From the NCBI GenBank assembly GCA_002785215.1, contig PFMK01000091.1, positions 1 to 43,281 of the forward strand: 43,281 nt of DNA. The letters run 5' to 3'. Source of the DNA: Candidatus Gottesmanbacteria bacterium CG_4_10_14_0_8_um_filter_37_24. GTDB taxonomy: Bacteria; Patescibacteriota; Microgenomatia; 2-02-FULL-39-11. Made by a program: the position numbers and the translations under genes. This document shows positions 1-41,010 of the stretch, piece after piece (within the stretch, counting starts at the first letter, position 1; each line of letters opens with the position of its first letter). The notes beneath the pieces were generated by a model. The model ran no database searches. It was given only the letters and a program-made list of their open reading frames with translations, and had not been told where the DNA came from.

Positions 1-335
1 GGGAATAGCCAAACTGTATGCTTAAAAATGTTGCAGTAATATTTGTCCCTTGCAACAAACCACGAAGATATGTAAAAATCTGGACAGGCATAGCTTTACC
101 TCCTAGTAAGACTATGCCTCATTTATATTTAGCTTGTCAAATCAATCACTATGTTGTTAAGGTGCGTAAGTACTGCTTGGGTATTAAAGGATAGATAATG
201 AGTCAGTGATTTCATGAAGGTAAAATATAAGAATCAGTATACATCTCCTTGGATTTGAATCCCTGCTTTACTGGAAGGAAGAGCTTCTACTTCATCTGTC
301 TAGAAAGTCCGGCTTTCCCCCTCAAGATCCTTCGG

Positions 336-407
336 TGGGCCTGCTTGGGATCGAACCAAGTACCTGTTGTTTATAAGACAACCGCTCTACCGGTGAGCTA
401 CAGGCCC
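336..407 (-). tRNA. tRNA-Ile with anticodon UAU (AUA decoder)
   Basis: The reverse complement folds as a cloverleaf. Acceptor GGGCCUG/CAGGCCC; D arm GCUC-ACCGGUA-GAGC; anticodon arm GUUGU-CUUAUAA-ACAAC; variable AGGUA; T arm CUUGG-UUCGAUC-CCAAG; discriminator A. The 3' CCA is not fully encoded (CCG follows). Confidence 0.9.
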
Positions 408-25320: not shown

Positions 25321-25669
25321 ATGCGCTACAAAGTATCAATCCAAGAGCGAACTTTCCAGTTTGGCATACGCATTATCAAGATGATTAAATCTCTCCCCAA
25401 AAATCCTGCCGGATATGCGATTGGCAATCAAATCGTAAGAAGCGGGACTTCGATCGGAGCAAATATTTGTGAAGCGCAAGATGCTGTATCCAAGGCTGAT
25501 TTCATCCATGAATGTTTCTTTAAAAGAAGCAAGGGAAACTGAATATTGGATAAAAACGATTGTAGCCTCAGAAATTCTTCCGAAACAAAAAATGGCGTTG
25601 CTACTTGCAGAAATAGAAGAAATTGTTAAAATACTAAGAGCTAGTTTGAAAAAGTTGAAGAGTAATTAA
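25321..25669 (+). pseudogene. Four-helix-bundle protein (23S rRNA intervening-sequence protein family), frameshifted
   Basis: IVRSGTSIGANICEAQDAVSKADFIH (frame of 25306-25542) continues as NVSLKEARETEYWIKT (frame of 25469-25669). Together they form the family signature, so a 1-nt shift near 25505-25515 is required. Confidence 0.75.
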
Positions 25670-26315: not shown

Positions 26316-26750
26316 ATGAAGCACATTTTTGCAGTAATCGGATCAGTTCTTATTTTATCCCTTTCAACTACCACGGTATCAGCCGCAAATAATTCTACTT
26401 TTATCCCTCAAAATATATTTGATTCTCTTTTTAAAAATATAAAACAAGGTTCAACAGGAGCAACAGGAAAACAAGGACCAGTTGGAGCAACAGGACCGAA
26501 AGGAGTAACGGGTCCTATAGGACCAATAGGACAAACAGGACTACAAGGACCTACAGGATTGGGTGGACCAACAGGATCAACTGGATCCACTGGGGGGTAT
26601 GGCTGGATCAACAGGTCCAACAGGTCCAAGTGGTCTAGAAGGTCCGACAGGAGCTACTGGGATACAAGGGGCAACTGGTTTAATTGGTCCTGTAGGCTCA
26701 ACAGGTGTACCAGGTTTACTCCCAACAGTAGCAGAGTTCGATTTGATTGA
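26316..26750 (+). CDS. Collagen-like (Gly-X-Y repeat) secreted protein, N-terminal fragment before a frameshift
   Basis: Signal peptide [23 protein letters not shown], then [50 protein letters not shown]. The G-X-Y register is lost directly after the G6 run at 26592-26597. Confidence 0.75.
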
Positions 26751-27018
26751 TGGAACATATGGGCCACTGCATCATTCCCCTGATATGAATTTGACCGGTA
26801 GACGACTTTTATTCGTAAAAATGACATCAATAGGGACCGGGACTTTAACAATACGCAACGGACCCGATATATATAATCACTGGACTGATCAGGAAACATT
26901 CTATTTAGATTCTGGTACTATGCAAAGTCATCAATTTGTCGTACCGGTAAAGGATGCAATTTATGGTTTAAGGATTAATGGAAATTTCACAATGAAAATT
27001 ACAGCGTTTGCGATATAA
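26563..27018 (+). CDS. Collagen-like protein, C-terminal fragment (G-X-Y repeats plus a ~100-aa globular C-terminal domain)
   Basis: In the +1 frame the repeat resumes right after the G6 run: [41 protein letters not shown] beta-rich domain follows, ending ...[10 protein letters not shown]. Confidence 0.75.
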
Positions 27019-27140
27019 TTATACATAGAATATCTCAATAACTAAATTATATCTTCCCTCATCTTTTACTTTTTTCCCCACGTTTGCAAATTACTACAAC
27101 ACGACATAGACCATCCGCCTCGGTGGCCTTATTATAACAA

Positions 27141-27195
27141 CTTGTGACTCCTTGGCGCATCACAGAGCGGAGTAAAGTATTAGATCTGTCTAGAT
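27141..27195 (+). repeat. Non-coding element B (related to element A)
   Basis: cttgtgactcc-ttggcgcatcacagagc-ggagtaaagtattagatctgtctagat, with ACUCC/GGAGU able to pair. It lies in the convergent intergenic region after the collagen-like gene. Confidence 0.4.
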
Positions 27196-27350
27196 GTTAT
27201 CAGTCTATTTGAAAAAGGTACTTAATATAAATACTTCTCTAAGAAGGAAGTATTTTATGTTTCAAAAAATATAAAAAGTATATAACAAATAACTAATAGG
27301 ATTCCCCCAATAATATTTGGATCGAACCTTATACTTACAGATAAAATTTA

Positions 27351-27965
27351 TTATCTCTTTATTTTTTTACATGCCTCTTTTGACGTAGTAATCCAGCTAT
27401 TATCTATCTGACAGCAAACAGTATCAATACAATTTTCAAGCGTCATCTTTTTTATTCCACCGCCACATTCTCTTGCAATTTGACAATCATATAGTGTTGG
27501 TGTTGGTATTTGGGTTATTACTAGACTTGAAGCGTTCCTATGGTATTCTTCACCATTTATAATATAACAAGCCCAAAGAATTTCATTCTGTTTTTTCGCT
27601 ATTTCGCTTTCTTCAATACTGGCTATTACATCTTTTCCGATTACAGATTTTAACCAATCTAATACTAATCCTCCAGGTGGACATTCCGTATAATTTTTGG
27701 CATAAATATCTAAAGCTTCCTCTCGGTCGCTTAATATTAGTATAGGAGTAGGAGTAATTACAGGAGTGGAAGTAGGAGTTACAGACGGTCGACGGAAAAA
27801 TGACATATCGAAAAATTTATTATTTTCAAACGGTTTTACTAAAAAAAATAATAATAAGATTACTACCACTCCAATAATTATTAAAAGTTGTTTATATGTT
27901 GGGGAAAATACAAACGTTATGCGGGGCTCTGTATTATTTTTCTGATTCTTTTCTACTTTTTTCAT
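27351..27965 (-). CDS. Membrane-anchored hypothetical protein with a Cys-rich C-terminus
   Basis: 204-aa ORF. TM helix LLIIIGVVVILLLFFLV, a Thr/Pro linker, and a C-terminal CQIARECGGG...CIDTVCCQ... Confidence 0.55.
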   Translation of the reverse strand: MKKVEKNQKNNTEPRITFVFSPTYKQLLIIIGVVVILLLFFLVKPFENNKFFDMSFFRRPSVTPTSTPVITPTPILILSDREEALDIYAKNYTECPPGGLVLDWLKSVIGKDVIASIEESEIAKKQNEILWACYIINGEEYHRNASSLVITQIPTPTLYDCQIARECGGGIKKMTLENCIDTVCCQIDNSWITTSKEACKKIKR

Positions 27966-28070
27966 AGGTTTTTATTTAAAACCCATTTAAAATACACCTA
28001 ATATCCATATTATTATCTATATGCCTTAAGTTAGCAATGACAATTGATTTTGAGTTATGACGAATGTATG

Positions 28071-28628
28071 TTAAGAATAAAATCCATCATATTTTCCATT
28101 ATTACCTTTTTTCGGATAATATTTATCAATCATGACATTACCCCCTATTTGGACTAATTCAAATACATATATCTTTTTTCCGTCATCAACCCAGCCACCA
28201 CCCATGTTATCATAACTAGAACGAGTTTCTTCTACCTCCACACGAAATCCTCTTTCAGCCTTCAATATGGACCCTAATTTGTATTCTGTGACTTTATATC
28301 CGAATCCTGCGGTCTTAAAGAGGCGTGGTGATGAATTCTCCAAGTCTAATGCCAGAAGAAAAGAGTATGTATCTGCTTCATCATTTGAAGAGGAGGGAGT
28401 GAAGAGCTTAAGAATGTCAGAGTTTCTTACCTTTTGAAGATCTTCAAATTTTATTACTACAGATTTAGCTACTTCTTCTGAGGAGGGAAAATCGGTTGGG
28501 GTAACAACTTTTGATGGTAGAGCAATTGGATTATTCGGTGTTTTTTCTGTTGTCTTAATAAGTGATTTTGTGGTATATCCTACAAAAAAAGCTAATATTA
28601 CAATGATTAAAACCCATACTTTGTTCAT
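28071..28628 (-). CDS. Membrane-anchored/secreted hypothetical protein
   Basis: 185-aa ORF with N-terminal anchor VWVLIIVILAFFVGY. I recognised no motif. Confidence 0.55.
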   Translation of the reverse strand: MNKVWVLIIVILAFFVGYTTKSLIKTTEKTPNNPIALPSKVVTPTDFPSSEEVAKSVVIKFEDLQKVRNSDILKLFTPSSSNDEADTYSFLLALDLENSSPRLFKTAGFGYKVTEYKLGSILKAERGFRVEVEETRSSYDNMGGGWVDDGKKIYVFELVQIGGNVMIDKYYPKKGNNGKYDGFYS

Positions 28629-28664
28629 ATAACAGAAATTATTTTTAAAATTAATCAGTTAAAT

Positions 28665-28847
28665 TTAATAGTCTTCAATAAATTTTGTAATTATCAATTG
28701 TGGACACTTTAAACCAAGTACATAATATATCCTCGCCACATTGTCGTTGTATTTATTTGTGAATAATATAGGAAAATTATTGTTTAATAAATCTTGTTTT
28801 ATATGTTTTCGTATTTTCTCTTTATCTAGTTTTATAAGTACAGTCAT
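28665..28847 (-). CDS. Small hypothetical protein (weak call)
   Basis: 60-aa ORF only. A further 56-codon Cys-containing ORF (28822-28992, minus strand) overlaps its start. Confidence 0.3.
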   Translation of the reverse strand: MTVLIKLDKEKIRKHIKQDLLNNNFPILFTNKYNDNVARIYYVLGLKCPQLIITKFIEDY

Positions 28848-29096
28848 CTACTTCAGCGTGTCGTCGATCATCTAAATATTTTGCTACTGATGTTGGTAAA
28901 CGACAGTCACTTAATAAGCCTCTTTCCAAGCAGGTGGTATTCCAAGAGTACAAATAAGCCTTATCAACTTTTTGGACACAGTCTGCAATCATTGTAGATT
29001 TCCGTTCTGCTTCCTGTTGGGCTACTATACCTGTTAAAATAATCTGTTCCTGTTGGGATTTGTTGTTAAAATACCCATACCCCTTTCGAGATATGA

Positions 29097-29146
29097 CCTA
29101 CACAAGGTTTCTGACGAGGAGCTCTCGCCCCTTGTGTAGGTTTTTT
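29097..29146 (+). terminator. Strong hairpin + U6 (intrinsic terminator/insulator) at the left edge of the defence operon
   Basis: cctacacaagg (29097-29107) pairs perfectly with ccttgtgtagg (29130-29140), followed by tttttt (29141-29146). The 22-nt loop contains a nested CGAG/CUCG stem. Confidence 0.6.
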
Positions 29147-29253
29147 CGCCATGCTCTCTTTTTTAGAGAGTTTAGGTATTAAACTATAAATATTTTACGC
29201 TAGTCCTTCAAAATACTCAACGAAAGAAGTAGAATAAAAGCAATTTACTTGAT

Positions 29254-29598
29254 ATGAGCAGTAGAAAAGAAACTCCTAAAATTACTAAGACAAAAGATGG
29301 TAAATTGGTTTCATGGCGACATCCTGGAGGTAAATTGCTACGAGTCGGTCCTGATTCTTTAACAGATAGTGAACTTATTGCGATTCTAATAGGTAGTGGG
29401 GTTCCAGGTAAATCAGCAGAATCTATTGCTAACGAACTTTTATCTCGTTTTCAATCTTTCAGAGGACTTGCAAATCAACAATTAGAAAAGTTTAAGGAGA
29501 TAAAAGGTTTAAAAACTGTAAAAGTTGTTAGAATTGCTGCTGCATTTGAAATTGCAAAGCGAATTGTTAATCAAGTTCTTAAAGAGAGAGAGAAATGA
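29254..29598 (+). CDS. RadC N-terminal helix-hairpin-helix domain protein (no JAB/MPN domain)
   Basis: LTDSELIAILIGSGVPGKSAESIANELLSRFQSFRGLANQQLEKFKEIKGLKTVKVVRIAAAFEIAKR matches the N-terminal third of RadC/UPF0758. The ORF stops where the JAB domain would begin. Its TGA overlaps the next ATG. Confidence 0.7.
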   Translation: MSSRKETPKITKTKDGKLVSWRHPGGKLLRVGPDSLTDSELIAILIGSGVPGKSAESIANELLSRFQSFRGLANQQLEKFKEIKGLKTVKVVRIAAAFEIAKRIVNQVLKEREK

Positions 29599-32500
29599 TT
29601 AGAAATCCCAATCCATTTGATACTACTATCACAAAGACAGAACGCACTGATAACCAAAAAATTGTGGAGTGGATGAACCAAATTATAAGAGAAGAAAATC
29701 TTCATTTTGGACTGGCAGAACAGGAAACAAGTGGTAGTGATAGAAAGCAACCAGACATTATCCTTTTTAAAGCTCCACAAAGTACATTAGTATCATTAGT
29801 ATTAGAACTTAAACCACCTTATTTTGACCCATTAGATTATGAAGAAGTGAAAAAACCAGCATGGGATAAAGCAAATATAAGAAAAGCTCCGTATTTTGCT
29901 ACGTCTAATTTTAAGAGTTTATATCTTTTTAACACCGAAAAAGCAAATAAGTTTGAATCAGAGGAACGACAAATAATCGATAAATATACCCTATCAAGTT
30001 TAGAAGATTTAAATTTAATAGAAGAACTAATATATAAGAACTCGATACTAAAGAGTCTTACTATCTTTTTAAAAGACCTTGATGGTTATGTACATGGCCA
30101 AAAACCGGAGAAATTACTGGCAATCGATGAGTGGTTAATTTATAGACTGCAGGAGAAAGTAAAGATACTTTCAAATTACTACCGAAGACTGATAGAAGAA
30201 AAGAGTCTAAATGATATTGAATTTAGAAAAAGACTGAGGATTTGGTTTAATAGACAAGGTTGGGGGTTTACAGCCCAAACACAAGATTTTGCTAAAGCAG
30301 CAAGGCAAACAGCTTATCTTCTGGTTAATAAGATACTTTTCTATGATGTATTACGTACATCGTTTCCCCAAAATTTCCCACAGATGCATATACCAGACGA
30401 TTTCAATAAAGGTGGAATGGTGCAAAGACATTTACAAAACTTTTTCGATGAGGTTTTAAAAATTGATTATGAAACAATTTATTCAACTGATTTTATCGAC
30501 GAAACAGCTTTTCCTGATGATGAAAATGTTATTTATCACATAAGGGAATTAGTAAAGAGTCTTAATCGTTTTAATTTTGCGAAGATAGAATTTGAAGTGT
30601 TGGGACGGATTTTTGAGAGTTTAATTCCTCAAGAAGAAAGACATGTTCTAGGTCAGTATTTTACTCACTCGGATATAGTCGACCTCATTCTTTCTTTTGC
30701 TATCAGAAATGAGAAAGATAAAATATTTGACCCTGGTTGTGGAGCAGGAACTTTTCTTCGTCGTGCTTACCATCTAAAGAAGTTAATAAATCCCAATCTT
30801 ACCCATGATGAAATCATTCCGACTCTTTGGGGAAATGATATTGCGAAATTTCCCGCACATCTTGCTACTATCAATTTAGCCATTGCTGATTTAAAGAGTA
30901 AAGATAATTATCCTCGTATTGTGCAAAAAGACTTCTTTGAATGGAGACCTGGAATTGTTGACCTTCCTGAAAGTACCAAAAAAGTGTTTTTAAAAAGTCT
31001 AGGTAAGGAGGAAAAAGAAGTAGTAGTTCCAAAGTATTTCGATGCGATTGTTGGTAACCCACCTTATACTCGACAGGAAGAAATGGATGATTTAATGGGA
31101 AGCCAAGGTCAGAAATATAAAGAGGAATTAATTGAAAAAGCAGTCAGAGATGAGAGTGGAAGGTTATATGCAAATATATCAAAACGTGCTGGTCTTCATG
31201 CATATTTCTTTGTTCATGGGACTAAGTTTTTAAAGAGTAACGGACGATTTGGGTTTATCGTTTCCAATTCATGGTTAGATGTTGATTATGGAAAAGGCCT
31301 TCAAGAACACTTTCTAAAACACTACAAATTAAAGGCGGTTATTGAATCGAAGATAGAGAGATGGTTTGAAGATGCAGAGATAAATACTTGTATTGTTTTA
31401 CTTGAAAAGTGTGAGGGTGAAAATAAAGAAAAAGCTAAAGAGCGAGAAGAAAACCTTGTTAGATTTGTTTACCTCAAAAAGTGTCTGTCAGAATTTATAC
31501 CTAAAGCATCAAGGATATTTGAAGAAACTGTTGAAAGAAAAGAATCGGTAGAAAGACTTTTACAATATATTTTTTCCAAAACTGTTTTTTTTGAAAATGA
31601 TGACCTTAGAGTTTACTGTAAACCTCAAAAGGAGTTATGGGATGAAGGCTTTGATGATGAAATGCAAGAATATACCGGTTCTAAATGGGGTAAGTATATT
31701 CGAGCACCACAGATATTTTTTACCATACTAGAAAAAGCTAAAGACCAATTGATTCCACTCAAAAAAATCGCTACAGTAAGACGGGGTATTACCACAGGTG
31801 CAAATGAATTCTTTTACTTAACTGAAGATGAGATAAAAAGGAAAAAGATAGAAAAAGAATTCTGGATGCATAAAGACGAAAGTGGCAAATGGGTACCAAA
31901 TTACATTATCAGGTCTCCAAGAGAATGTAAGAGTATTATAGTAAATCCTCAAGATTTGAAATATAGAGTTCTGTTGGTACATAAGAATAGAGATGAACTT
32001 AAAGGAACACATTTATTGAGTTACATAAAAGAAGGAGAAAGAAAAGGTTTTCATAAAAGGCCAACATGTGAAAGTAGAAAAAAATGGTGGGATTTGGGTA
32101 GAAGAAGACAAGCATTACTGAATGTTAATTATTTAATCAATGATGTAGGAAGAGCATACATTGGAAAATATTGGGCAAGTGATGATTTTCAAGAAATTCA
32201 TACGGAAAAGAAAATAGAGGTATTTCTTAACTCTTCTATTTTTTGGCTCTTTCAGAATATCGAAGGTAGGACATCTTTTGGGGGCGGTTTACTAAAAATT
32301 CAGACGTATGAGTTTAAAAATTTACTTGTGGTTATACCTAATGATAAAGCAATAGAGTTATTTAAGAAACTGAGTACGAGACAAATTAATTCAGTATTTG
32401 AAGAGATAGGTGCCAATACAAGTGATGAGGTATCTATGTCTAAAATAAAACCTGATAGACATATTCTTGATAGTGTAATTATGGGAAATATACTGGGATT

Positions 32501-33035
32501 GACAGAGTTAGAGCAAATCGAGGTATATAAATCGGTGATAGACTTAGTAAGAAGTCGACTAGAGAGAGCAAAAAGTGTTAAGAAAAAAAATAAGACCAAA
32601 GAGGGAATAGACATTTCATTACTTGTTAAAACAATAATAGATAAAATTGGAGAGAATAGACTTGGAGAATTTTATAGGAAACATATTTTGAGTAGAAAAG
32701 ATTTGAAAAAGATAATTTTACCTGAGCTTACAGAGTCCCCCACAATCAGTCAAACTTTAATGGATTTCAGACTTATAAGCGGACGTAAGTCTATTGACTG
32801 TAATACTGAAGAAGAAGCAAAGTATTGCAAAGTATTTTTAGAGGCTGGTTGGAGTGAGGTAAAAGTCCCAAAAGATGCAGAATATTTAGGAAATATCTTA
32901 CTTCAATTAGAAAAAATCGGCAGAGAAGTAAAAGAGGCAATCACTTATTATACCGAAGGTGTTTTAGATACAAAAATCCAGAATCAAGTTGAACATATAG
33001 TATGGCAGGAGGTTTCAAGTTTAGAAACAAATTAA
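29595..33035 (+). CDS. Type IIG-like fused restriction endonuclease / N6-adenine DNA methyltransferase (Eco57I/TaqI-like gamma class) with a C-terminal specificity region
   Basis: The N-terminal HsdR-N/PD-(D/E)XK-like motif is QPD54IILF...LVLE71LK73 (29754-29813). Motif X is GQYFTHSDIV and motif I is FDPGCGAGTFL (from 30729). Motif IV is GNPPY (NPPY at 31056-31067). A TaqI_C-like RRGITTGANEFFYL is present, plus about 450 more residues. Confidence 0.8.
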   Translation: MIRNPNPFDTTITKTERTDNQKIVEWMNQIIREENLHFGLAEQETSGSDRKQPDIILFKAPQSTLVSLVLELKPPYFDPLDYEEVKKPAWDKANIRKAPYFATSNFKSLYLFNTEKANKFESEERQIIDKYTLSSLEDLNLIEELIYKNSILKSLTIFLKDLDGYVHGQKPEKLLAIDEWLIYRLQEKVKILSNYYRRLIEEKSLNDIEFRKRLRIWFNRQGWGFTAQTQDFAKAARQTAYLLVNKILFYDVLRTSFPQNFPQMHIPDDFNKGGMVQRHLQNFFDEVLKIDYETIYSTDFIDETAFPDDENVIYHIRELVKSLNRFNFAKIEFEVLGRIFESLIPQEERHVLGQYFTHSDIVDLILSFAIRNEKDKIFDPGCGAGTFLRRAYHLKKLINPNLTHDEIIPTLWGNDIAKFPAHLATINLAIADLKSKDNYPRIVQKDFFEWRPGIVDLPESTKKVFLKSLGKEEKEVVVPKYFDAIVGNPPYTRQEEMDDLMGSQGQKYKEELIEKAVRDESGRLYANISKRAGLHAYFFVHGTKFLKSNGRFGFIVSNSWLDVDYGKGLQEHFLKHYKLKAVIESKIERWFEDAEINTCIVLLEKCEGENKEKAKEREENLVRFVYLKKCLSEFIPKASRIFEETVERKESVERLLQYIFSKTVFFENDDLRVYCKPQKELWDEGFDDEMQEYTGSKWGKYIRAPQIFFTILEKAKDQLIPLKKIATVRRGITTGANEFFYLTEDEIKRKKIEKEFWMHKDESGKWVPNYIIRSPRECKSIIVNPQDLKYRVLLVHKNRDELKGTHLLSYIKEGERKGFHKRPTCESRKKWWDLGRRRQALLNVNYLINDVGRAYIGKYWASDDFQEIHTEKKIEVFLNSSIFWLFQNIEGRTSFGGGLLKIQTYEFKNLLVVIPNDKAIELFKKLSTRQINSVFEEIGANTSDEVSMSKIKPDRHILDSVIMGNILGLTELEQIEVYKSVIDLVRSRLERAKSVKKKNKTKEGIDISLLVKTIIDKIGENRLGEFYRKHILSRKDLKKIILPELTESPTISQTLMDFRLISGRKSIDCNTEEEAKYCKVFLEAGWSEVKVPKDAEYLGNILLQLEKIGREVKEAITYYTEGVLDTKIQNQVEHIVWQEVSSLETN

Positions 33036-33082
33036 AAGTATTATTTTTATGAAAATAAATATTAAAAATTCATTTTACATTT

Positions 33083-35104
33083 ATGCTAGGTAAGAATATT
33101 AACGGATATAAAGTTGAGGAATTTTTAGGTAAGGGAGGATTTGGTGAAGTTTATAAAGCTACAAAGAATGGTTCTCAATATGCTATCAAGTTTATTCGCG
33201 AAGATTTTATATACAAGGATTATCAAAAAGAGTTATTACGGAGAGAAATAGCAGCACTTAGAAAAGTAAAAAGCAAATATACTGTAACTTTCTTCGAGGA
33301 TGGTACACATACAGAAGGTTATACTACTTATCGATATATTGTAATGGAGTTAGTAGAAGGACTTACTCTTAGAGAAATATTAGATAAGTATCCTAAACCA
33401 TGGCCACAAGATAAAGCCATCAAACTTATAACCTATGTACTTATGGGTTTATCAGATATTCATAAAAAAGATATTATCCACCGCGATTTGAAGCCAGAAA
33501 ATATAAAGATAACTCCAAATAAAGAAGTAAAAATATTAGATTATGGTTTATCAAAAATTATTGATTATTCCTCAATTACGCAAACAGGTGTACCAGTTGG
33601 CTCTTTTTTCTATATGTCTCCAGAGCAAGTGAAAGGAGAGAAGCCATTAAAATGTGGAAGCGACTTTTATGCTATAGGAGTTGTGCTTTATGAGCTACTT
33701 ACCGGTCAAATACTGTTTTATCCCTCCACAAATGCTGAAATAATACATAAAACTATTAATGTTAAACCACCATATCCAACTTCTCTAAACCCTAAAATAT
33801 CCAACAATATTGAGAATGTCATCCTTAAGTTATTAGAAAAGGAAGTATACCAAAGGTATAGGACTATTGATGAGATTATCGAGGCATTAAACCAAAAGCC
33901 TATTACAGCTGTATCTGTTGCAACAGATAGAATAAAATTCTATCCGCGGGTAATTCAAAATGACACAAATATATTACAAGACTTTCTTAAGAATAATGAA
34001 ATAGATGGTGCCGATTTCCCAATAAATCTACATGCTCAATATAAAACTTTAAGTGCACTTTTACGCAGAAAAGCTAGTAAAATTGATTTCTTTTCAGACC
34101 CAAGTACTAATAGAATGGTTTATACAAATTTCAGAAAAACAAAAGGTCTGAGAGAATTACCTTATGCTCCTTCCGGGTATGACCCACTTACGACAGACGA
34201 TTTTAACAGTCAAATATCTATACAAAACTATGCTCAGAAAGTTATTGAATTACAGATTGCAAATGGTTGCAGTATTCTGACTGCTCCATTTTTCTATTTT
34301 GATAATACCAGTGATGAATGGTTTGTAGTCAATCTAAAACTATTAAGGGAAAGCGTTGATTATGTCAGAAAAAAGTATCCGCAATATAAAGTATCTGGTG
34401 CTATCTGCACTCAAGCAGAAATACTATGTAGACCTAAAGAACGTAAGACAATAATTGAAGATTTTGGTAATTGTGCAATGGATTTTTGCCAATTTTATAT
34501 CGATAAAATTTCTGAGACTATAGTAGATGCACAACTTTATAATTTTATTTCTACAGCTTTAGGTATCAAAAACTATAACAAAGCCAGGATTGTTAGTTGT
34601 AGAGTACCAGTAGTCGCATTGGGATTATTGACGATTGGATTTGATGCTATTACTTCTGGTTTAGGTGTTTTAGACTCTTTTAATAAAGGCGTGATAATTA
34701 AAGAAGAAGATATTACAGTGATGCCAACGAAGTACTATTTTCCAGATTTACTTATATCAGTAACTTATAGCTCAAAAACTAGGATGTATCAGGATATTAT
34801 AGCCCAAGAGTCAGATTTAAAAAAACAGCTACCTCAACTAAATATTAAATTAAAGTGTGATTGTTCTGGATGCATGCATACTTCAATGTCGGATACATAT
34901 CAAAAACCCCGATTGCACTTTTTACATGCTATAAAGAAAGATATTGATGAAATAAACTCAATAAGTTCAGCACAAAGAAAGAGTTATTTTATAGAGAGAA
35001 TTGATAAGGCGTATGATTTACAACAGAAGCTCATTGGGAGAGGTATACGATTACAATCTCCAACTTTTTTAAAGACTTGGAAAGAGATTTTAATGAAATT
35101 TTAG
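33083..35104 (+). CDS. Hanks-type Ser/Thr protein kinase fused to a ~390-aa unassigned C-terminal domain (CxCxxC...H motif)
   Basis: The kinase core has GKGGFGEVYKA, AIKFI, HRDLKPENI, DYG and SPEQ within the first ~270 aa. The C-terminal region has alternating short hydrophobic strands and helices, and C592-D-C594-S-G-C597-M-H599 ... H612-F-L-H615 (from 34856). Confidence 0.8.
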   Translation: MLGKNINGYKVEEFLGKGGFGEVYKATKNGSQYAIKFIREDFIYKDYQKELLRREIAALRKVKSKYTVTFFEDGTHTEGYTTYRYIVMELVEGLTLREILDKYPKPWPQDKAIKLITYVLMGLSDIHKKDIIHRDLKPENIKITPNKEVKILDYGLSKIIDYSSITQTGVPVGSFFYMSPEQVKGEKPLKCGSDFYAIGVVLYELLTGQILFYPSTNAEIIHKTINVKPPYPTSLNPKISNNIENVILKLLEKEVYQRYRTIDEIIEALNQKPITAVSVATDRIKFYPRVIQNDTNILQDFLKNNEIDGADFPINLHAQYKTLSALLRRKASKIDFFSDPSTNRMVYTNFRKTKGLRELPYAPSGYDPLTTDDFNSQISIQNYAQKVIELQIANGCSILTAPFFYFDNTSDEWFVVNLKLLRESVDYVRKKYPQYKVSGAICTQAEILCRPKERKTIIEDFGNCAMDFCQFYIDKISETIVDAQLYNFISTALGIKNYNKARIVSCRVPVVALGLLTIGFDAITSGLGVLDSFNKGVIIKEEDITVMPTKYYFPDLLISVTYSSKTRMYQDIIAQESDLKKQLPQLNIKLKCDCSGCMHTSMSDTYQKPRLHFLHAIKKDIDEINSISSAQRKSYFIERIDKAYDLQQKLIGRGIRLQSPTFLKTWKEILMKF

Positions 35105-35761
35105 TGAAATAACCTGGTGAAGAAACAGTTCTTTAGCAAATAATCCCATCGATTCCTCGTAAAAAGAAAGGAATGAGTTTTGAGAAGGTTTCCGTTTGAA
35201 GTAAATCTCTCCATTCTTTTGATTAAATAAAATTAAGCCTATATCATGTCTATCAAGATAAGAATAGTCGATATTTGTTTCGTAGTTAGATAAGATTGCT
35301 AGATAACATTCATCGGTGTAACTTTTATATCTTCTTGCCTGCAGAACCCCTTGTTTCCAATCCTTTATTTTAGCCTCAATTGCTATAAGTTTCTTAATAG
35401 GATTTAAAATAGTATTTACTTTTTTAAAGTATTTTCTTCCGTCTTTAACAATATAATCACCAACTGCTAACAACTGAATAATCTCTCTACTAATATATTT
35501 GCTTGTGCCAGAGATTCTTATAACATCTTCTACTGTAAAAAGCGTGTCATTTGGTAATGAAAGAAAACTTTTTAGAGCGTAATAATTATTTATAGGTTTT
35601 CTATTTATAGAATTATTATTTGTAAAGAAGTCTTTTGCGAAGGCTAAATCTGCTATCCCATAACCTGCGGAGAATTCTTGAATAGCAATATCGGTATGGA
35701 AGGTTTTTTTTAATCCTTTGGCTAATTCAGCTACCAACTGATTTTCTGTCTGGATTTGCAT
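35090..35761 (-). CDS. PD-(D/E)XK nuclease-fold protein with an inserted winged-helix-like segment
   Basis: E29...GIAD38LAF and, about 90 residues later, IAIE128AK130IKDWKQGVLQARRY form a split D...ExK motif. The segment between them (FTVEDVIRISGTSKYISREIIQLLAVGDYIV) looks wHTH-like. The gene is convergent with the kinase gene and overlaps it by 15 nt. Confidence 0.55.
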   Translation of the reverse strand: MQIQTENQLVAELAKGLKKTFHTDIAIQEFSAGYGIADLAFAKDFFTNNNSINRKPINNYYALKSFLSLPNDTLFTVEDVIRISGTSKYISREIIQLLAVGDYIVKDGRKYFKKVNTILNPIKKLIAIEAKIKDWKQGVLQARRYKSYTDECYLAILSNYETNIDYSYLDRHDIGLILFNQKNGEIYFKRKPSQNSFLSFYEESMGLFAKELFLHQVISLKFH

Positions 35762-36015
35762 TTCTGTATTTAGAATAGCACAAATAACTTTTTTTTACTC
35801 TAGCATCAATTTAACAGCTAAATGTATCTATTTTCATTAAAACGAGATAATGATTCGGAAAGAAAAGTGTACATGAAAATTACTTTAAAGGTATTGCATT
35901 TATCAGTATACAGGAAATCAGACTGGTATTAGTAGCATATTATTTGTGAAAGATGGTACGAAGAAGTATAATTCTTAGCATACAGTAATAGATGATTAGG
36001 ATAAGATAATTTATT

Positions 36016-37026
36016 ATGGATATACAGAAAATAAAAATCAAAGGTGATTACAAACTGGCAGATATTGTCCATGATATTGAAAAGGGGATATTGCGGATTC
36101 CACAGTTTCAAAGAGAGTTTGTGTGGGATAAGCCAAGAGTGATTAAACTTCTAGAGAGTATATATCTTGAGTATCCAATTGGCTCTTTTTTCTTCTGGGA
36201 TGCACCAAGAAAATACTATGACTTTTATCGGGATATTGCCGAGTTGGGACTTCCTAAGCCTGATAAATACGAAAAGATTGTTTTTATTCTTGACGGCCAA
36301 CAACGGCTTACTTCCCTTTATGTAACAGTTAAAGGATTAACTCTATATGGCAGGGATTATAAAAAGATTTGTTTTGATTTAGACGAGAAAGTTTTTGTTG
36401 ACAGAACTCCAGACAATCAGCGGTATGTTTCCATCTGTGATTTGCTTTCCAACGAAAGATATGATGTTTATGAAGGTTTGACTGTTGAGCATAAAAAAGC
36501 GTTTAATGAGTGTTTTCAAAGGTTTAACAATTATCCTTTTTCGGCCATTGACGTTCGGGATAAAGAATTGGATGAGGTATGCGATATTTTTGAACGGATT
36601 AACCAAGGCGGGCAAAAACTTAATTTGTTTGACCTTATATCCGCCAGCACCTGGACACCCGAATTTGATTTACGGCTAGCGGTCAAAGGAGAAAACGAGA
36701 AGTTAAAAACAAAGGGATTCGGAGAAATTGACAACGAAGTCTACCTTCAGGCACTTTCTCTTATTGCCAAGGGTTCATGCACCAGACCTGTTCAGTTACA
36801 GTTGAAAGCCGAAGATGTCGGTAAGTTTTGGCAGAATACTATCGAATCCATCGCCCTGGCGATTGATTATTTGAGAAACAATTTAGGCGTTGTTAATTCT
36901 ATCTTTATTCCTTACCGCAGTATGATTGCCTTGGTTGCCTATCTGTTTTTCAAAAGTGGTAGGAAGCTTAAACCACGAACAATCAGAACTTCTAGCTCAA
37001 TGGTTCTGGCAGACCACATTCTCTGA
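36016..37026 (+). CDS. GmrSD-like type IV restriction enzyme, N-terminal DUF262 (ParB-like) fragment before a frameshift
   Basis: IPQFQREFVWDKPRVIKLLESIYLEYPIGSFFFWD and ILDGQQRLTSL are the DUF262 signatures. The reading frame ends in nonsense (KLKPRTIRTSSSMVLADHIL) after the T5/A4 runs at 36946-36955. Confidence 0.8.
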   Translation: MDIQKIKIKGDYKLADIVHDIEKGILRIPQFQREFVWDKPRVIKLLESIYLEYPIGSFFFWDAPRKYYDFYRDIAELGLPKPDKYEKIVFILDGQQRLTSLYVTVKGLTLYGRDYKKICFDLDEKVFVDRTPDNQRYVSICDLLSNERYDVYEGLTVEHKKAFNECFQRFNNYPFSAIDVRDKELDEVCDIFERINQGGQKLNLFDLISASTWTPEFDLRLAVKGENEKLKTKGFGEIDNEVYLQALSLIAKGSCTRPVQLQLKAEDVGKFWQNTIESIALAIDYLRNNLGVVNSIFIPYRSMIALVAYLFFKSGRKLKPRTIRTSSSMVLADHIL

Positions 37027-38425
37027 AAGATATGGAGCATCAATTTTGACTCTTATGACGGAAGACAGAAGAATTATGGATAAAATCGCTGAAGAGAGAG
37101 ATGTTACTATACGCTATCCCAATGATATAAATATAGAATCATTGATGGATATAAGGATGTATAGGAAGTCCGCTATCAAAAATGGAGTGTTATGTCTTCT
37201 TACTAGACGAAACCCTCTTCATTTTAAAAACAACACACAGCTACCTTTGAGAGACGTCTACTACTCAGATTTCAATAACGCTGAAAGACACCATATCTTC
37301 CCAAAATCTATTGTACAGAAAGCCTACCCCGCTATAAAAGTCCATTCACTGCCTAATTTCTGTTTTATACCAGCAGAACTCAATAAAGAAATTTCAAACA
37401 AAAAGCCAAGTAAATACTTTGCAGAGTTTGCCTCTGAAAATCCAGATTTTGAAGATACGCTCAAGACACACCTTATCAAATACGATGAATCTATTAAGAC
37501 CGATGATTTTATTTCCTTTCTCTCTTCAAGAGCAGCAGCTATGCTTGAGGAAATAACAAGAGCTACAGGTTCAAAAATAAGTAGAGTATCAGCTGATGAC
37601 GCTAATAAGGCGATAGACAAGGTAGAGAAATCCTTAAGGAATTTGTTGGATAAGAAGTTATCAGTAAAGAATGTAAATTACTGGAAAGGTCCTATTCCGG
37701 GCGATATTGTAGACGTAGTAAAAGGAAGATTGGACGATTATTTGAAGAAAGACCCTTCAAAAACAGTTAACGATTTTACCCCAAGAGATTTACTCGATTT
37801 CTGTGACATCATGGATTACTACAAAATAATCATCTGCAACTGGGACATATTCCAATCTCTTTTTAGGTCGAAAGTAGAAACTGAAAAAAGGTTTATCAAC
37901 CTCAAAGAATATCGCAACACTGTAAAACATAACAGAGGAGAAATCGTACCTTTTATAAAGAAAGAGGGAGAAGCGGCATTAGAGTGGTTATCGATTATCT
38001 TGGAGGAAAAAAGTAAAAAGAAGGAAGAAAAGTCTATAGCCCAAGATGATATTGGTATCGTATCTCACAAGATAAATAGCAAAGAAGAAATAGACACGAT
38101 TGTCTGCCCGGCAAAAGAAGATGGTTTTAAAGCGACCTTTTTAGGTGAGAAACAATGGTATTCAATAAGAATATCTTCATCAGTCATACCAAGACTTAAA
38201 TACTTGGCAATTTATGAAGTTTCACCAGTTAGCGCTATACGTTGGGCAGGTAAAGTACTGAAAGTTGAACTATTTGAGAATGGACCTAAATATAGAGTCT
38301 ATCTTTCAGAAATATTCAAAGTAGGACCTATTGAAAAAGATAGCCCAAAATTTGTTCCTCAGGGTTCTCGATATACGAAGTTTGATTTGCTCTCCAAAGC
38401 TAAAAAACTCTCTGATATTTTTTAG
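36926..38425 (+). CDS. GmrSD-like enzyme, C-terminal fragment: DUF262 helical part + DUF1524 (His-Me finger) + Swt1-like HEPN + small beta-rich terminal module
   Basis: The +1 frame continues with SLNHEQSELLAQWFWQTTFSERYG (DUF262 middle region), then NNAERHHIFPKS (DUF1524), then NLKEYR-NTVK-H (Rx4H, 37913-37930). A terminal module, YLAIYEVSPVSAIRWAGKV...RYTKFDLL, follows. The TTG start in the track is an artefact of the frameshift. Confidence 0.78.
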   Translation: MPWLPICFSKVVGSLNHEQSELLAQWFWQTTFSERYGASILTLMTEDRRIMDKIAEERDVTIRYPNDINIESLMDIRMYRKSAIKNGVLCLLTRRNPLHFKNNTQLPLRDVYYSDFNNAERHHIFPKSIVQKAYPAIKVHSLPNFCFIPAELNKEISNKKPSKYFAEFASENPDFEDTLKTHLIKYDESIKTDDFISFLSSRAAAMLEEITRATGSKISRVSADDANKAIDKVEKSLRNLLDKKLSVKNVNYWKGPIPGDIVDVVKGRLDDYLKKDPSKTVNDFTPRDLLDFCDIMDYYKIIICNWDIFQSLFRSKVETEKRFINLKEYRNTVKHNRGEIVPFIKKEGEAALEWLSIILEEKSKKKEEKSIAQDDIGIVSHKINSKEEIDTIVCPAKEDGFKATFLGEKQWYSIRISSSVIPRLKYLAIYEVSPVSAIRWAGKVLKVELFENGPKYRVYLSEIFKVGPIEKDSPKFVPQGSRYTKFDLLSKAKKLSDIF

Positions 38426-38438
38426 AAACGATTATTCT

Positions 38439-38591
38439 ATGAAGATAAACAAAGAGTGGCATCTGAAAAATAGGATGCCTAAAAATCCCTCACTTGAAGA
38501 ACGAATAAAGTGGCATATAGAACACGTCAAGAATTGTGCTTGCAGACCTATACCGAAGAGACTGCAGACAGAAATTGAAAAGAGTATATAA
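38439..38591 (+). CDS. Small conserved hypothetical protein (50 aa, Cys-x-Cys)
   Basis: MKINKEWHLKNRMPKNPSLEERIKWHIEHVKNCACRPIPKRL resembles a recurrent small-protein family of unknown function. I prefer the ATG at 38439 to the track start at 38331, which overlaps the preceding gene. Confidence 0.5.
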   Translation: MKINKEWHLKNRMPKNPSLEERIKWHIEHVKNCACRPIPKRLQTEIEKSI

Positions 38592-38626
38592 AGACAATAA
38601 TACTTCAGTCCTTATAATATGACATT

Positions 38627-39184
38627 ATGTTTATAAAAGATTTATTATCTGAATTTATTTCAAAAATATCCAGTGGAGAATTGGAAATATACAATGAGGC
38701 AAGTATTCAATATGAGCTTGCTATCTTTCTCAGACAAAGACTTCCTAATTACAAAGTGCAACTTGAGAGAAGCATTAGATATTTTGGACTAAAGAAGCAG
38801 GGGTTTGAAAAGAGAGAAATTGACATTGTCATCTACGATACTGCTTTGCAGGATAAACATGCTATTGAGTTAAAATATCCGACAAATGGTCAATATCCTG
38901 AGCAGATGTTTAGTTTCTGTAAAGACATACGATTCTTAGAGCAATTAGCAGAGAACGGCTTTCATGAGAACTTATTTATCGTATTTGCAGATGACGCAAA
39001 CTTTTGGACAGGAAAATCCGCAGAAGACTCAATATACAGATTTTTTAGGGGTGGAATAGAGCTTCAAGGAACAATTACAAAACCCACAGGGAAAAAGAGC
39101 CATGAAATAGAACTCAGAAGAAACTATACTGTAAAATGGGAAAATATGAATGAAAAATTAAAATACTGGATTGCCGAAATATAA
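38627..39184 (+). CDS. PD-(D/E)XK nuclease-fold protein
   Basis: N-terminal helix with E..IQYELAIFLR, then EIDIVIYD...HAIELKYP (D...ExK). Length is 185 aa. Confidence 0.55.
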   Translation: MFIKDLLSEFISKISSGELEIYNEASIQYELAIFLRQRLPNYKVQLERSIRYFGLKKQGFEKREIDIVIYDTALQDKHAIELKYPTNGQYPEQMFSFCKDIRFLEQLAENGFHENLFIVFADDANFWTGKSAEDSIYRFFRGGIELQGTITKPTGKKSHEIELRRNYTVKWENMNEKLKYWIAEI

Positions 39185-39186
39185 TC

Positions 39187-39927
39187 ATGACAAGAAGACT
39201 GAATTCTTTTGAGCTTCATTTCAAAGATAAGAATGACCATGATAATGCAGTAATTATAGACAAAGAACCTGATACATGTCCTCTCTGTAATCATGGTATT
39301 GAGGCACTACTTATTGATGCATATGGTAAATCTGACTTAAACAAAGGTCATTTTATTCAATCCATATACAAGTGTCCTCGTATAGATTGTCAGACAGTTT
39401 TTATCGCATATTACACTTCGGGCTCTTGGTATGGACCTAGAAATATCAGTGAGTATGTTTTTCTTCAAAATACTTTTATACCAGCATATATAAAAGAGGA
39501 GAACTTTGAAAAAGAGATTGAAAGATTATCACCACAGTTTGTAGAAATATATACCCAAGCAAGTATTGCTGAAAACATGGGATTGAAAGCTATTTGCGGA
39601 GCAGGATACCGCAAGGCTTTAGAATACCTGATTAAAGACTATCTAAAACTGACCATGCCCACGATTACTAAAGAAGTAGAGAATCACTATTTAGGTTATG
39701 TGATAGCTAACTATGTTGGAAATGAAAGAATCAAAAAAATGGCAGGTTTAGCAAAGAACGTAGGCAACGATGAAACTCATTACATAAGGAAAATAGACAA
39801 ACTATCTTTAGAAGATTTAAAAAAGCTGATAAGACTTACTACTCATTGGATAACTGACGAATTGCTTACAGAAGAATACGCCACAATTTACGAAAAGTTA
39901 ATGACTAATGACAAAGATAAAAAATAA
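39187..39927 (+). CDS. Zn-ribbon + DUF4145 (HEPN-superfamily) protein
   Basis: CPLCNHG...CPRIDCQ at the N-terminus. The C-terminal AICGAGYRKALEYLIKDY...LAKNVGNDETHY fits the DUF4145 pattern (R.alE.l......GN...H). The gene starts 2 nt after the preceding stop. Confidence 0.6.
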   Translation: MTRRLNSFELHFKDKNDHDNAVIIDKEPDTCPLCNHGIEALLIDAYGKSDLNKGHFIQSIYKCPRIDCQTVFIAYYTSGSWYGPRNISEYVFLQNTFIPAYIKEENFEKEIERLSPQFVEIYTQASIAENMGLKAICGAGYRKALEYLIKDYLKLTMPTITKEVENHYLGYVIANYVGNERIKKMAGLAKNVGNDETHYIRKIDKLSLEDLKKLIRLTTHWITDELLTEEYATIYEKLMTNDKDKK

Positions 39928-39993
39928 TCGTTAAACACTGTTTATTTAACGATTTAAAGATAACTGTCGATAAGTTAATGTTTAAACGATACT

Positions 39994-40905
39994 CTAACTC
40001 ATCTTCAGTAATTTTGAAGCAACCACAGCTAAAAGACTGCCTGTAAAATTTGAAATTGTGTCTGTAGCCACCCTTTTTAACCAAGCAACAGCCTTATTTT
40101 TAAAATTTTTATCTTTTTTAATCCTTTTCTCAAATTCATTCTTCACTATTCTATGGATTCTCCTTTTCAAAACATCATCACTAACTTCTGAATAAGTCTT
40201 ATCAATCTTTTTAATTATTTCAGTCCATTTACTCAATGGAGATTCACTTAATAAGTCAACATTCTTAGAAATGTCTTTAACAATTTTTTGATGATTTATT
40301 TTTATTATTTGTGGGGAGTTTCTTTTATTTATTGAAGCATCGATATTTGAATTTATGACATCTCCCCCTACATTAATATTAGTTATTTGATTAATGCCAT
40401 TTTTTTTGGAAAAGATTTTTTTATAAATTATTACTTGTCTTTCATCTGCTTCTCTAAATTTATAGAATACATTTTTTCTTGGGACTATTCTCAAAATCTC
40501 TGCAGCTACTTCTAATTCTCCTTCTTTGAATAAAACATTAAACCATTTTAAAAAATTTCTACCTAGTATAGGACAAGGCACTTCTATTTTGGGAGAAAAA
40601 AAGACATCCAAAGGAAATTCGACAGTAGAAAGTCTACAACTAAGTTTAGTACTATATACATTTATTACACGACTGTCGATACCTATAACCTGATTAGTCT
40701 CTAATTTTTTATAGTTAACTTTACCTTCAAATAATGACAGTATTATTTTATAAGGAACTAAGGACATGTCTGCCCCTGTATCTAATAGAAAACGAAAACT
40801 GTAGGCTCTATTTTTTAACCCCAAAATATCTACAGGGATTATAGGGGTAGCTATCTTGCCAAAACCAATACTATCTCGAAATTCATAAGGGAATCTATAA
40901 ATCAT
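39994..40905 (-). CDS. Retropepsin-like (clan AA) aspartic protease domain protein with a ~170-aa C-terminal extension
   Basis: FRFLLDTGADMSLVP carries the D-T-G-A catalytic motif, and ILGRNFL is the typical downstream strand. The C-terminus is Lys-rich and ends in a hydrophobic helix (SLLAVVASKLL). Confidence 0.6.
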   Translation of the reverse strand: MIYRFPYEFRDSIGFGKIATPIIPVDILGLKNRAYSFRFLLDTGADMSLVPYKIILSLFEGKVNYKKLETNQVIGIDSRVINVYSTKLSCRLSTVEFPLDVFFSPKIEVPCPILGRNFLKWFNVLFKEGELEVAAEILRIVPRKNVFYKFREADERQVIIYKKIFSKKNGINQITNINVGGDVINSNIDASINKRNSPQIIKINHQKIVKDISKNVDLLSESPLSKWTEIIKKIDKTYSEVSDDVLKRRIHRIVKNEFEKRIKKDKNFKNKAVAWLKRVATDTISNFTGSLLAVVASKLLKMS

Positions 40906-41010
40906 ATCAATAGACTTCTTGCGTAATTAGGTAATGACTGTATTTCTTGTTACGCAATACGTTTATTATACTACAGAGATATATCGTGAGTAAGACTGTG
41001 GGGTAAATGA

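Follow-up and report, generated by a model that had tools for sequence, protein, structure and literature searches.

The DNA analysed here (the window) is the 43,281-nucleotide (nt) contig PFMK01000091.1, positions 1-43,281, of Candidatus Gottesmanbacteria bacterium CG_4_10_14_0_8_um_filter_37_24 (GCA_002785215.1; GTDB lineage Bacteria; Patescibacteriota; Microgenomatia; 2-02-FULL-39-11), and the region studied spans 29097-35104. Three open reading frames (ORFs) lie on its plus strand, at 29254-29598 (114 amino acids, aa), 29595-33035 (1146 aa) and 33083-35104 (673 aa), with an ATGA stop/start overlap at 29595-29598 between the first two and a 47-nt spacer between the second and third. An earlier note on this DNA had described the same layout, with coordinates that were confirmed here, and had proposed that the three genes form a single defence operon. 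Comparison with related loci shows instead that each gene pair is kept without the other, and the interval is with high confidence the junction of two independent two-gene modules, termed A (29254-33035) and B (33083-35761), the second of which is completed by a convergent gene on the minus strand that the earlier note had missed. The genes are as follows.

29254..29598, plus strand: module A gene 1, a helix-hairpin-helix (HhH) protein of 114 aa consisting of the N-terminal part of RadC (RadC-N) without a JAB domain (PF20582 UPF0758_N, 2.4e-18)
29595..33035, plus strand: module A gene 2, a type IIG-like enzyme (IIG) of 1146 aa (Pfam Eco57I, N6_Mtase, MmeI_Mtase and M_Eco57I_C)
33083..35104, plus strand: module B gene 1, a fusion of 673 aa between a Hanks kinase and a domain resembling tRNA-guanine transglycosylase (TGT) (Pkinase 1.2e-47; AlphaFold2 (AF2)/Foldseek)
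35090..35761, minus strand: module B gene 2, hereafter the partner, a predicted PD-(D/E)xK nuclease of 223 aa with a winged-helix insert

Synteny of module A was assessed on three IIG homologues viewed directly and on 80 further metagenome loci with enough upstream sequence, downstream synteny being counted on the 54 loci in which 1.5 kb or more of 3′ sequence was available. For module B, searching species-representative genomes with a partner profile yielded 80 loci, and iterated hidden Markov models for the kinase, the TGT-like domain and the partner gave 88, of which 82 are distinct once a few duplicates are set aside. The exact kinase protein of the window was found on many contigs, all of them from one genome repeatedly sampled and identical in gene order. 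In more divergent relatives of the kinase (44-62% identity), RadC-N and IIG are missing and the neighbours differ throughout, the sole constant neighbour being a convergent gene of 224-236 aa, the 3′ end of which abuts or overlaps that of the kinase gene and which corresponds to the window ORF at 35090-35761 on the minus strand. The RadC-N and IIG pair was found beside the kinase/TGT-like module at none of the 82 independent loci, and neither kinase, TGT-like domain nor partner was found downstream of RadC-N and IIG at any of the 54. The adjacency of IIG and kinase is thus not conserved, the trio was seen in one genome only and, as each pair is kept in relatives without the other, the three genes do not form a conserved unit. 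The earlier note had itself named lack of synteny in related genomes as an outcome that would count against a single operon, and this is what the comparison of module A with module B loci found. Within the window genome, read-through from the IIG gene into the kinase gene may occur, since no terminator is predicted in the 47-nt spacer.

The first protein of module A is, as the earlier note had recognised, the N-terminal part of RadC only. It matches the NCBIfam RadC model over positions 3-89 of 212 (75 bits against a cut-off of 180) and, of the N-terminal HhH and C-terminal JAB/MPN domains that define a full RadC (UPF0758) protein, it holds the N-terminal domain alone; the homologues found in such pairs are 103-114 aa long. 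The reading of the second protein as a PD-(D/E)XK-like motif joined to an N6-adenine (N6A) methyltransferase (MTase) was also borne out, with a match to the PADLOC type IIG profile REase_MTase_IIG (PDLC03606) at 2.2e-52 over aa 46-753 and with D54, E71, K73, DPGCGAGTF (DPxCGxGTF) and GNPPY/NPPY invariant among 15 homologues of 53-71% identity. One polypeptide carries the nuclease motif as well as N6A-MTase motifs I and IV and a target-recognition region, in keeping with the sequence definition of type IIG. The solved structures nearest to its MTase by sequence are those of type I HsdM, BseCI, MmeI and TaqI. Four regions can be placed along the gene.

29754-29813, plus strand: N-terminal PD-ExK motif (D54, E71, K73)
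30522-31439, plus strand: gamma-class N6A-MTase (aa ~310-615)
31755-32342, plus strand: M.Eco57I-C-like specificity region (aa 721-916)
32343-33035, plus strand: conserved C-terminal tail of ~230 aa (aa ~917-1146), without an assigned family

The IIG family is large, with 1292 proteins at E <= 1e-10 across phyla, and its full-length relatives of 52-57% identity come from Chloroflexi, Deltaproteobacteria, Nitrospirae and the candidate phyla radiation (CPR). In 79 of 80 loci, also across phyla, the IIG gene is preceded by a RadC-N-only gene of the same orientation, at a distance of 150 nt or less in 73 loci and with an insert of 440-820 nt in 6. The two genes are probably translationally coupled, and the near-obligatory HhH partner, taken together with the start/stop overlap, suggests that module A encodes either a two-subunit enzyme or a type IIG enzyme with a dedicated controller, in which the RadC-N protein would be a DNA-binding accessory or controller subunit and the C-terminal tail of the enzyme a candidate docking site for it. 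Type IIG/IIL enzymes of the MmeI and Eco57I type share with the module A enzyme the single-chain combination of PD-ExK motif, gamma-class N6A-MTase with NPPY and C-terminal specificity region, but module A differs from them in the additional RadC-N HhH gene, the stop codon of which overlaps or abuts the IIG start, and in the extra conserved tail. No earlier description of RadC paired with a type IIG enzyme was found in the literature.

The second pair, module B, is less usual than the first. Its first gene encodes a complete Hanks Ser/Thr kinase followed by ~390 further residues, as the earlier note had stated, and the kinase residues K36, E55, H133-R134-D135, N140, D153-Y154-G155 and P180-E181 are invariant in 30 homologues. 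The ~390 residues beyond the kinase domain have no match in Pfam, NCBIfam or PADLOC. A fold search with the AF2 model of the whole fusion (predicted local distance difference test (pLDDT) 86.8, predicted TM-score (pTM) 0.85) gave kinases only, and the C-terminal domain was therefore re-modelled alone (pLDDT 82.4, pTM 0.83). The best PDB matches of this model in Foldseek were mouse/human QTRT1 and Z. mobilis TGT; E-values to tRNA-guanine transglycosylases ran from 9e-6 to 5e-4, with TM-scores of 0.45-0.55 over ~415 columns, as compared with TM-scores mostly at or below 0.39 for other triosephosphate isomerase (TIM) barrels. A search of viral folds (BFVD) with the C-terminal domain returned nothing nearer than the cellular TGTs. 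On the strength of this model the domain is described as TGT-like, a term that carries no claim of transglycosylase activity. The parts of the fusion are located as follows.

33107-33877, plus strand: Hanks Ser/Thr kinase domain (aa 9-265)
33935-35101, plus strand: TGT-like TIM barrel and helical tail (aa ~285-673)
34856-34873, plus strand: CxCxxC motif (aa 592-597)

Conservation within the TGT-like domain is confined, family-wide, to D339-P340, Q391, P402, G526, H612 and a few other residues. TGTs carry a catalytic aspartate pair, D102 and D280 in the Z. mobilis enzyme; in the present family D339 of the D-P motif is 92% conserved and no second aspartate reaches 85%. Alignment of the C-terminal profile with E. 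coli Tgt in hhalign was non-significant (probability 1.6%), and the only segment aligned was CxCxxC, opposite CDCYTC, which holds the zinc cysteines C302, C304 and C307 of Tgt. Of 30 close homologues, 22 have the motif at the corresponding place; its absence from the other 8, and its lack of family-wide conservation, rule out an essential zinc site.

The partner gene is convergent with the kinase gene, the two 3′ ends overlapping by 15 nt (35090-35104). Among 81 partner sequences, E6, E29, D38, E129-x-K131 and Q141 are 100% conserved. The protein itself has no family match in Pfam, NCBIfam or PADLOC, so that these libraries hold no model for either the TGT-like domain or the partner, and sequence and profile searches of the PDB gave nothing usable for either. 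Relatives of the partner show weak or faint matches to Mrr_cat, HTH_46 and PD_DExK, with the winged-helix hits falling in the variable middle region. From the conserved E...D...ExK...Q signature and these weak hits, the partner is predicted to be a PD-(D/E)xK nuclease with a winged helix-turn-helix (wHTH) insert.

The partner adjoins the TGT-like domain in 84 of the 88 loci, the four misses lying near contig ends. Module B occurs in Patescibacteria, Bacilli, Proteobacteria, Chloroflexi and Archaea, in four arrangements.

33 loci: kinase and TGT-like domain fused, convergent with the partner
10 loci: kinase and TGT-like domain fused, co-directional with the partner (Bacilli and others)
25 loci: kinase and TGT-like protein encoded by separate adjacent genes (Proteobacteria, Chloroflexi, Actinobacteria)
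16 loci: no kinase detected

A kinase-less CPR clade of 13 loci carries a PIN_3 gene of ~150 aa between the TGT-like gene and the partner, and in 6-7 loci, of the split type, a calcineurin-like (Metallophos) or PP2C phosphatase gene abuts the module. The presence of two unrelated phosphatase families beside the partner implies, as far as gene content can, that phosphorylation in these systems is reversible. The loci concerned (numbered L) are listed here.

L036-L039, L041-L044, L046, L047, L049, L054 and L062: PIN_3 gene in a gap of ~430 nt between partner and TGT-like gene
L048 (9101-9868), L053 and L057: Metallophos gene beside the partner gene
L051, L079 and L086 (9317-9985): PP2C gene beside the partner gene

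The constant core of module B is therefore the TGT-like barrel and the nuclease-like partner, with kinase and PIN domain alternating and phosphatases optional. The TGT-like family is rare, forming 270 clusters at 50% identity among 1.84 billion representatives; no match to module B was found in 5,426 complete E. coli genomes or in a phage collection, and a search of plasmids returned a single haloarchaeal one, CP095393.1 of Natribaculum breve (L180, 3426-6182), on which partner, kinase and TGT-like genes form a tight co-directional operon. The region is unannotated in the record of that plasmid.

Several named systems share parts with module B. PD-T4-6 and Stk2 are single-gene kinase defences. 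The window kinase domain matches PD-T4-6 profiles at 7e-69, and an automated PADLOC run might label the gene PD-T4-6; however, the match covers the kinase domain only, the fusion has in addition a TGT-like domain of 390 aa and an obligatory partner, the predicted nuclease, and in other loci the kinase is a separate gene or gives way to a PIN domain. The TerY-P triad and type VII toxin-antitoxin (TA) systems (TakA/TglT) are conflict modules built on Ser/Thr kinases and phosphatases. Module B resembles them as a compact mobile cassette that combines a Ser/Thr kinase with an effector and, in some loci, with a PP2C enzyme or metallophosphatase, but it lacks TerY/vWA, its effector would be the PD-(D/E)xK/wHTH protein, and it always contains the TGT-like barrel. 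Cap10 of the type IV cyclic oligonucleotide-based antiphage signalling system (CBASS) is a TGT-fold protein in a defence gene set, but type IV CBASS has neither a sequence-level match nor partner genes in common with module B, near which no CD-NTase (cGAS/DncV-like nucleotidyltransferase) lies. The Dpd system likewise includes a TGT-fold protein, DpdA, within a conflict or defence gene set (PMC12839542). A full Dpd system joins DpdA to DpdB, a ParB-like ATPase, to DpdC and to the restriction genes dpdD-K. Module B differs from it in having no NCBIfam or PADLOC Dpd match other than a chance-level hit of one relative to DpdI (E 0.035), in having no DpdB/C or QueC-like protein nearby, and in its poorly conserved TGT catalytic residues. 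A literature search on kinase, TGT/DpdA and restriction endonuclease combinations in defence found no earlier description of module B, nor was any report found of a TGT-like domain fused to a Hanks kinase. Module B is neither BREX (bacteriophage exclusion) type 2 nor MADS (methylation-associated defence system), and both gene pairs are apparently undescribed in the profile libraries and literature consulted.

Taken together, the best explanation of the locus as a whole, and one considered probable, is that two independent modules sit in a low-GC (guanine plus cytosine) mobile or defence island and that module B works along the lines set out below. A role for module B in conflict, defence or addiction is itself rather likely. 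Interchangeable parts are typical of prokaryotic conflict systems, and the swapping seen here therefore suggests that the barrel could be a sensor or modifier, the kinase or PIN domain a transducer or effector, and the PD-(D/E)xK/wHTH protein a DNA-targeting effector. In the tentative scheme that follows, each functional step of which is read from gene content and conserved motifs, a sensor gates the kinase and the kinase gates the nuclease. The TGT-like barrel would recognise a nucleobase or nucleic-acid cue and thereby control the attached kinase, a PIN RNase taking the place of the kinase in one clade. Phosphorylation would then gate the DNA-cleaving partner or host targets, with a PP2C or calcineurin-like phosphatase resetting the system where one is present, and the outcome would be that invading DNA is restricted or the infected cell arrested.

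A bolder form of this scheme, which is put forward as a doubtful possibility, would make module B an unrecognised immune system of bacteria and archaea in which a TGT-derived barrel reads, exchanges or conjugates a nucleobase on DNA, tRNA or protein and is coupled to a Hanks kinase, PIN RNases being an alternative output and a dedicated restriction-type nuclease being controlled. Its joint counterpart for module A, held with the same reserve, is that this module defines a subclass of type IIG enzymes that needs a RadC-N HhH subunit.

Several points weigh against the scheme for module B and its separation from module A. The match to the TGT fold is moderate, with a TM-score of about 0.5 and 10-13% identity, and the sequence and profile tests for kinship of the C-terminal domain with TGTs were negative or non-significant. 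Transglycosylase chemistry is doubtful for the domain as judged from its sequence, because few residues are conserved, CxCxxC is often lost and a second conserved aspartate is missing. The genes directly flanking module B are a mixed set, with components of restriction-modification (RM) systems making up about 10 of 136 and many being unrelated housekeeping genes, so the defence-island signal is only moderate. Finally, an N6A-MTase RM system lies directly upstream of the kinase/TGT-like gene, on the same strand, in 5 of the 82 loci (6 of 83 with the window), which could reflect a functional link that the view of two independent modules underrates. These upstream systems belong to varied families (type I, MmeI-like and IIG), and in one locus (L038) the stop codon of the HsdS gene overlaps the start of the TGT-like gene by a few nt. 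The loci are given below.

L015 (10699-13821), L016, L034, L038 and L049, co-directional with module B: RM systems of the MmeI/Type ISP-like and type I HsdRMS kinds

This minority pattern could be due to clustering in islands or to an optional link. The association of MTase and kinase that the earlier note had drawn does not hold as a fixed unit; what may survive of it is a loose preference for RM neighbours or such an optional link.

An unlikely alternative to the sensor-kinase-nuclease scheme is that module B is itself RM-like, the TGT-like domain exchanging or removing a base of host DNA as a self mark and the partner cutting unmarked DNA, with the kinase, PIN and phosphatase parts merely regulatory. 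The constant core of TGT-like domain and predicted nuclease, from which the kinase is dispensable in 16 loci, would fit such a division of labour, as would the convergent arrangement with overlapping 3′ ends, a layout common for type II restriction and modification genes. The fold match is to TGT, and Dpd systems offer a case of DNA being modified by homologues of TGT (PMC12839542). On the other hand, the TGT catalytic aspartate pair and zinc site are not conserved family-wide, the NCBIfam models for DpdA, DpdB and DpdC give no match, no preQ0-synthesis genes were seen nearby, and an always-active kinase domain would be costly as a mere regulator.

Module B could also be an addiction module that stabilises integrative elements, in which phosphorylation curbs a nuclease or PIN toxin as in TakA/TglT, and this TA-like reading is considered improbable. 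It draws on the linkage to large serine recombinases (within 6 kb of module B in 18 of 82 distinct loci), relaxase/type IV coupling protein (T4CP) genes (3-4 loci) and tRNA-adjacent insertion sites (tRNA genes at the module edges in three loci), on PIN domains being classic TA toxins, and on the compact format of two or three genes with overlapping ends. Many loci, however, have no mobile-element genes within 6 kb, and a barrel of 400 aa would have no obvious role in a simple TA pair; nor are TA and abortive-infection functions mutually exclusive.

The proposal that RadC-N, IIG and kinase make up one methylation-plus-kinase operon akin to BREX type 2/Pgl or MADS is very improbable. It accounts for the shared strand, tight spacing and lack of a predicted terminator between IIG and kinase, and it finds echoes in the RM systems upstream of module B in 5 other loci and in sub-threshold hits to mad2/mad6 and PglX/PglW. 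A Ser/Thr kinase gene does stand beside an N6A-MTase gene in the window, as in BREX type 2, but the adjacency is not conserved and the proteins differ. PglW has 1400-1600 aa and comprises a NERD nuclease, a pseudokinase, an active kinase, three wHTH modules and an iSTAND part (PMC12839542), whereas the window protein of 673 aa has a kinase and the TGT-like barrel and none of the NERD, pseudokinase, wHTH or iSTAND parts; it reaches 45.7 bits against BREX_PglW (cut-off 990), and the MTase 18.6 bits against BREX_2_MTaseX (cut-off 400). A total of 26 window ORFs were scanned with Pfam, PADLOC or NCBIfam profiles, 16 of them with PADLOC, and none encodes PglZ, PglY/BrxC, BrxD, BrxHI or BrxL; the rejection of ordinary BREX type 2 by the earlier note thus holds. 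MADS is an operon of eight genes (mad1-8), of which MAD6, MAD7 and MAD8 are mandatory (bioRxiv 10.1101/2023.03.30.534895). The PADLOC mad2 and mad6 profiles do match the MTase and kinase domains of the window, but NCBIfam MAD2 and MAD6 give 66 bits against 720 and 140.7 bits against 460, the latter over the kinase domain only, and mad7 and mad8 were absent from the 16 ORFs scanned with PADLOC. A housekeeping role for module B, as a tRNA-modifying TGT paralogue under kinase control beside an unrelated neighbour, is equally improbable, for although tRNA-guanine transglycosylases are its nearest structural matches, the family is rare and patchy, is missing from the E. coli genomes searched, sits in variable islands in strict linkage to a predicted nuclease with intact catalytic residues, and does not conserve the TGT active site.

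The setting of the two modules is consistent with a horizontally acquired island, as GC content falls to 0.31-0.34 across 27-41 kb (27000-41000) from 0.36-0.42 to the left, where the window holds housekeeping genes (ribonucleotide reductase, CbiM, Memo/AMMECR1). The earlier note was right in that the region, a defence or mobile island, contains undescribed components, although the set of genes it assembled omitted the conserved partner of the kinase at 35090-35761. Module B has the IIG gene on one side and a GmrSD-like gene on the other, the latter belonging to the island and to neither module. Both halves of this split gene match PADLOC PDC-M55C and HEC-05, and the second also matches PDC-M34B; a sequencing error was ruled out as the cause of the split, which is the same in six independent metagenome assemblies. 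Other features of the window are listed below.

36016-37026 and 36926/37055-38425, plus strand: GmrSD-like (DUF262) type IV restriction-like gene, split (GmrSD_N 1e-32)
26563-27018, plus strand: ORF with collagen-like G-x-y repeats, just left of the island
~25481-25669, plus strand: small gene left of the island with a weak hit to the 23S rRNA intervening-sequence protein family (PF05635), in the JGI calls
334-407, minus strand: tRNA-Ile(TAT)
614-2971, minus strand: gene for a protein of 785 aa, TrwB/DUF87 (type IV coupling protein-like)

The last two, which lie side by side, may be the remnant of a conjugative element at the left end of the window. Elsewhere, type I RM genes occur near module B in 5-8 of the 82 loci, and RhuM, Psu and a Schlafen-like helicase are each single cases among its neighbours. 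Upstream of module B in one locus (L011), a DUF3800-IX RNA (RF02968) lies at 4765-4835 on the plus strand, beside a DUF3800 gene, MazG-like genes and a Schlafen-like helicase gene.

The hairpin and run of six U residues (U6) that the earlier note had placed in front of the three genes, at 29097-29146, has a real stem of 13 bp (-25.2 kcal/mol, z = -4.6), but it is the long second stem of a LOOT RNA encoded on the minus strand.

29055..29178, minus strand: LOOT RNA (RF03000), full length (cmscan 73.3 bits, gathering score 46.4, E 4.6e-12)

The match runs from 29178 to 29055 and covers model positions 1-121 of 121, and the fold has a minimum free energy of -45.1 kcal/mol (z = -6.1). The U6 is the complement of the conserved A-rich linker of LOOT, and the hairpin with its U6 is thus not simply a terminator setting off the genes that follow. 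The RNA sits 76 nt upstream of the RadC-N gene and is divergent from it. LOOT was looked for in 16 other RadC-N/IIG loci and found in none, and it is therefore ruled out as a component of module A; that it marks an island boundary or integration site is speculation. A second copy was observed in a Saccharibacteria metagenome-assembled genome (L007, 863-985, plus strand), 1.9 kb from a module B pair.

Genes packed closely on one strand of a defence island can, as this locus illustrates, have come together by chance, and the true partner of a gene may sit on the opposite strand. Judging from module A, a large group of type IIG enzymes, spread across phyla, may not be genuine one-chain enzymes, which would matter for their annotation and expression. 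If module B works in defence or addiction, a TGT-like barrel wired to a eukaryotic-type kinase would be a new component there and, should the reading that links nucleobases to the kinase be true, it would represent a new sensing principle that joins nucleobase chemistry to protein phosphorylation. The fused, split, PIN-swapped and phosphatase-equipped forms of the family offer built-in comparisons, and the module can be tested directly, as it occurs in culturable Paenibacillus, Silvania and Variovorax and on a haloarchaeal plasmid. Among these, Paenibacillus sp. QZ-Y1 carries it at about 4.783 Mb of NZ_CP196836.1, and the copy of Silvania confinis H4N4 comes with a phosphatase. In Patescibacteria, with their tiny genomes, retention of a cassette of 2.7 kb implies strong selection.

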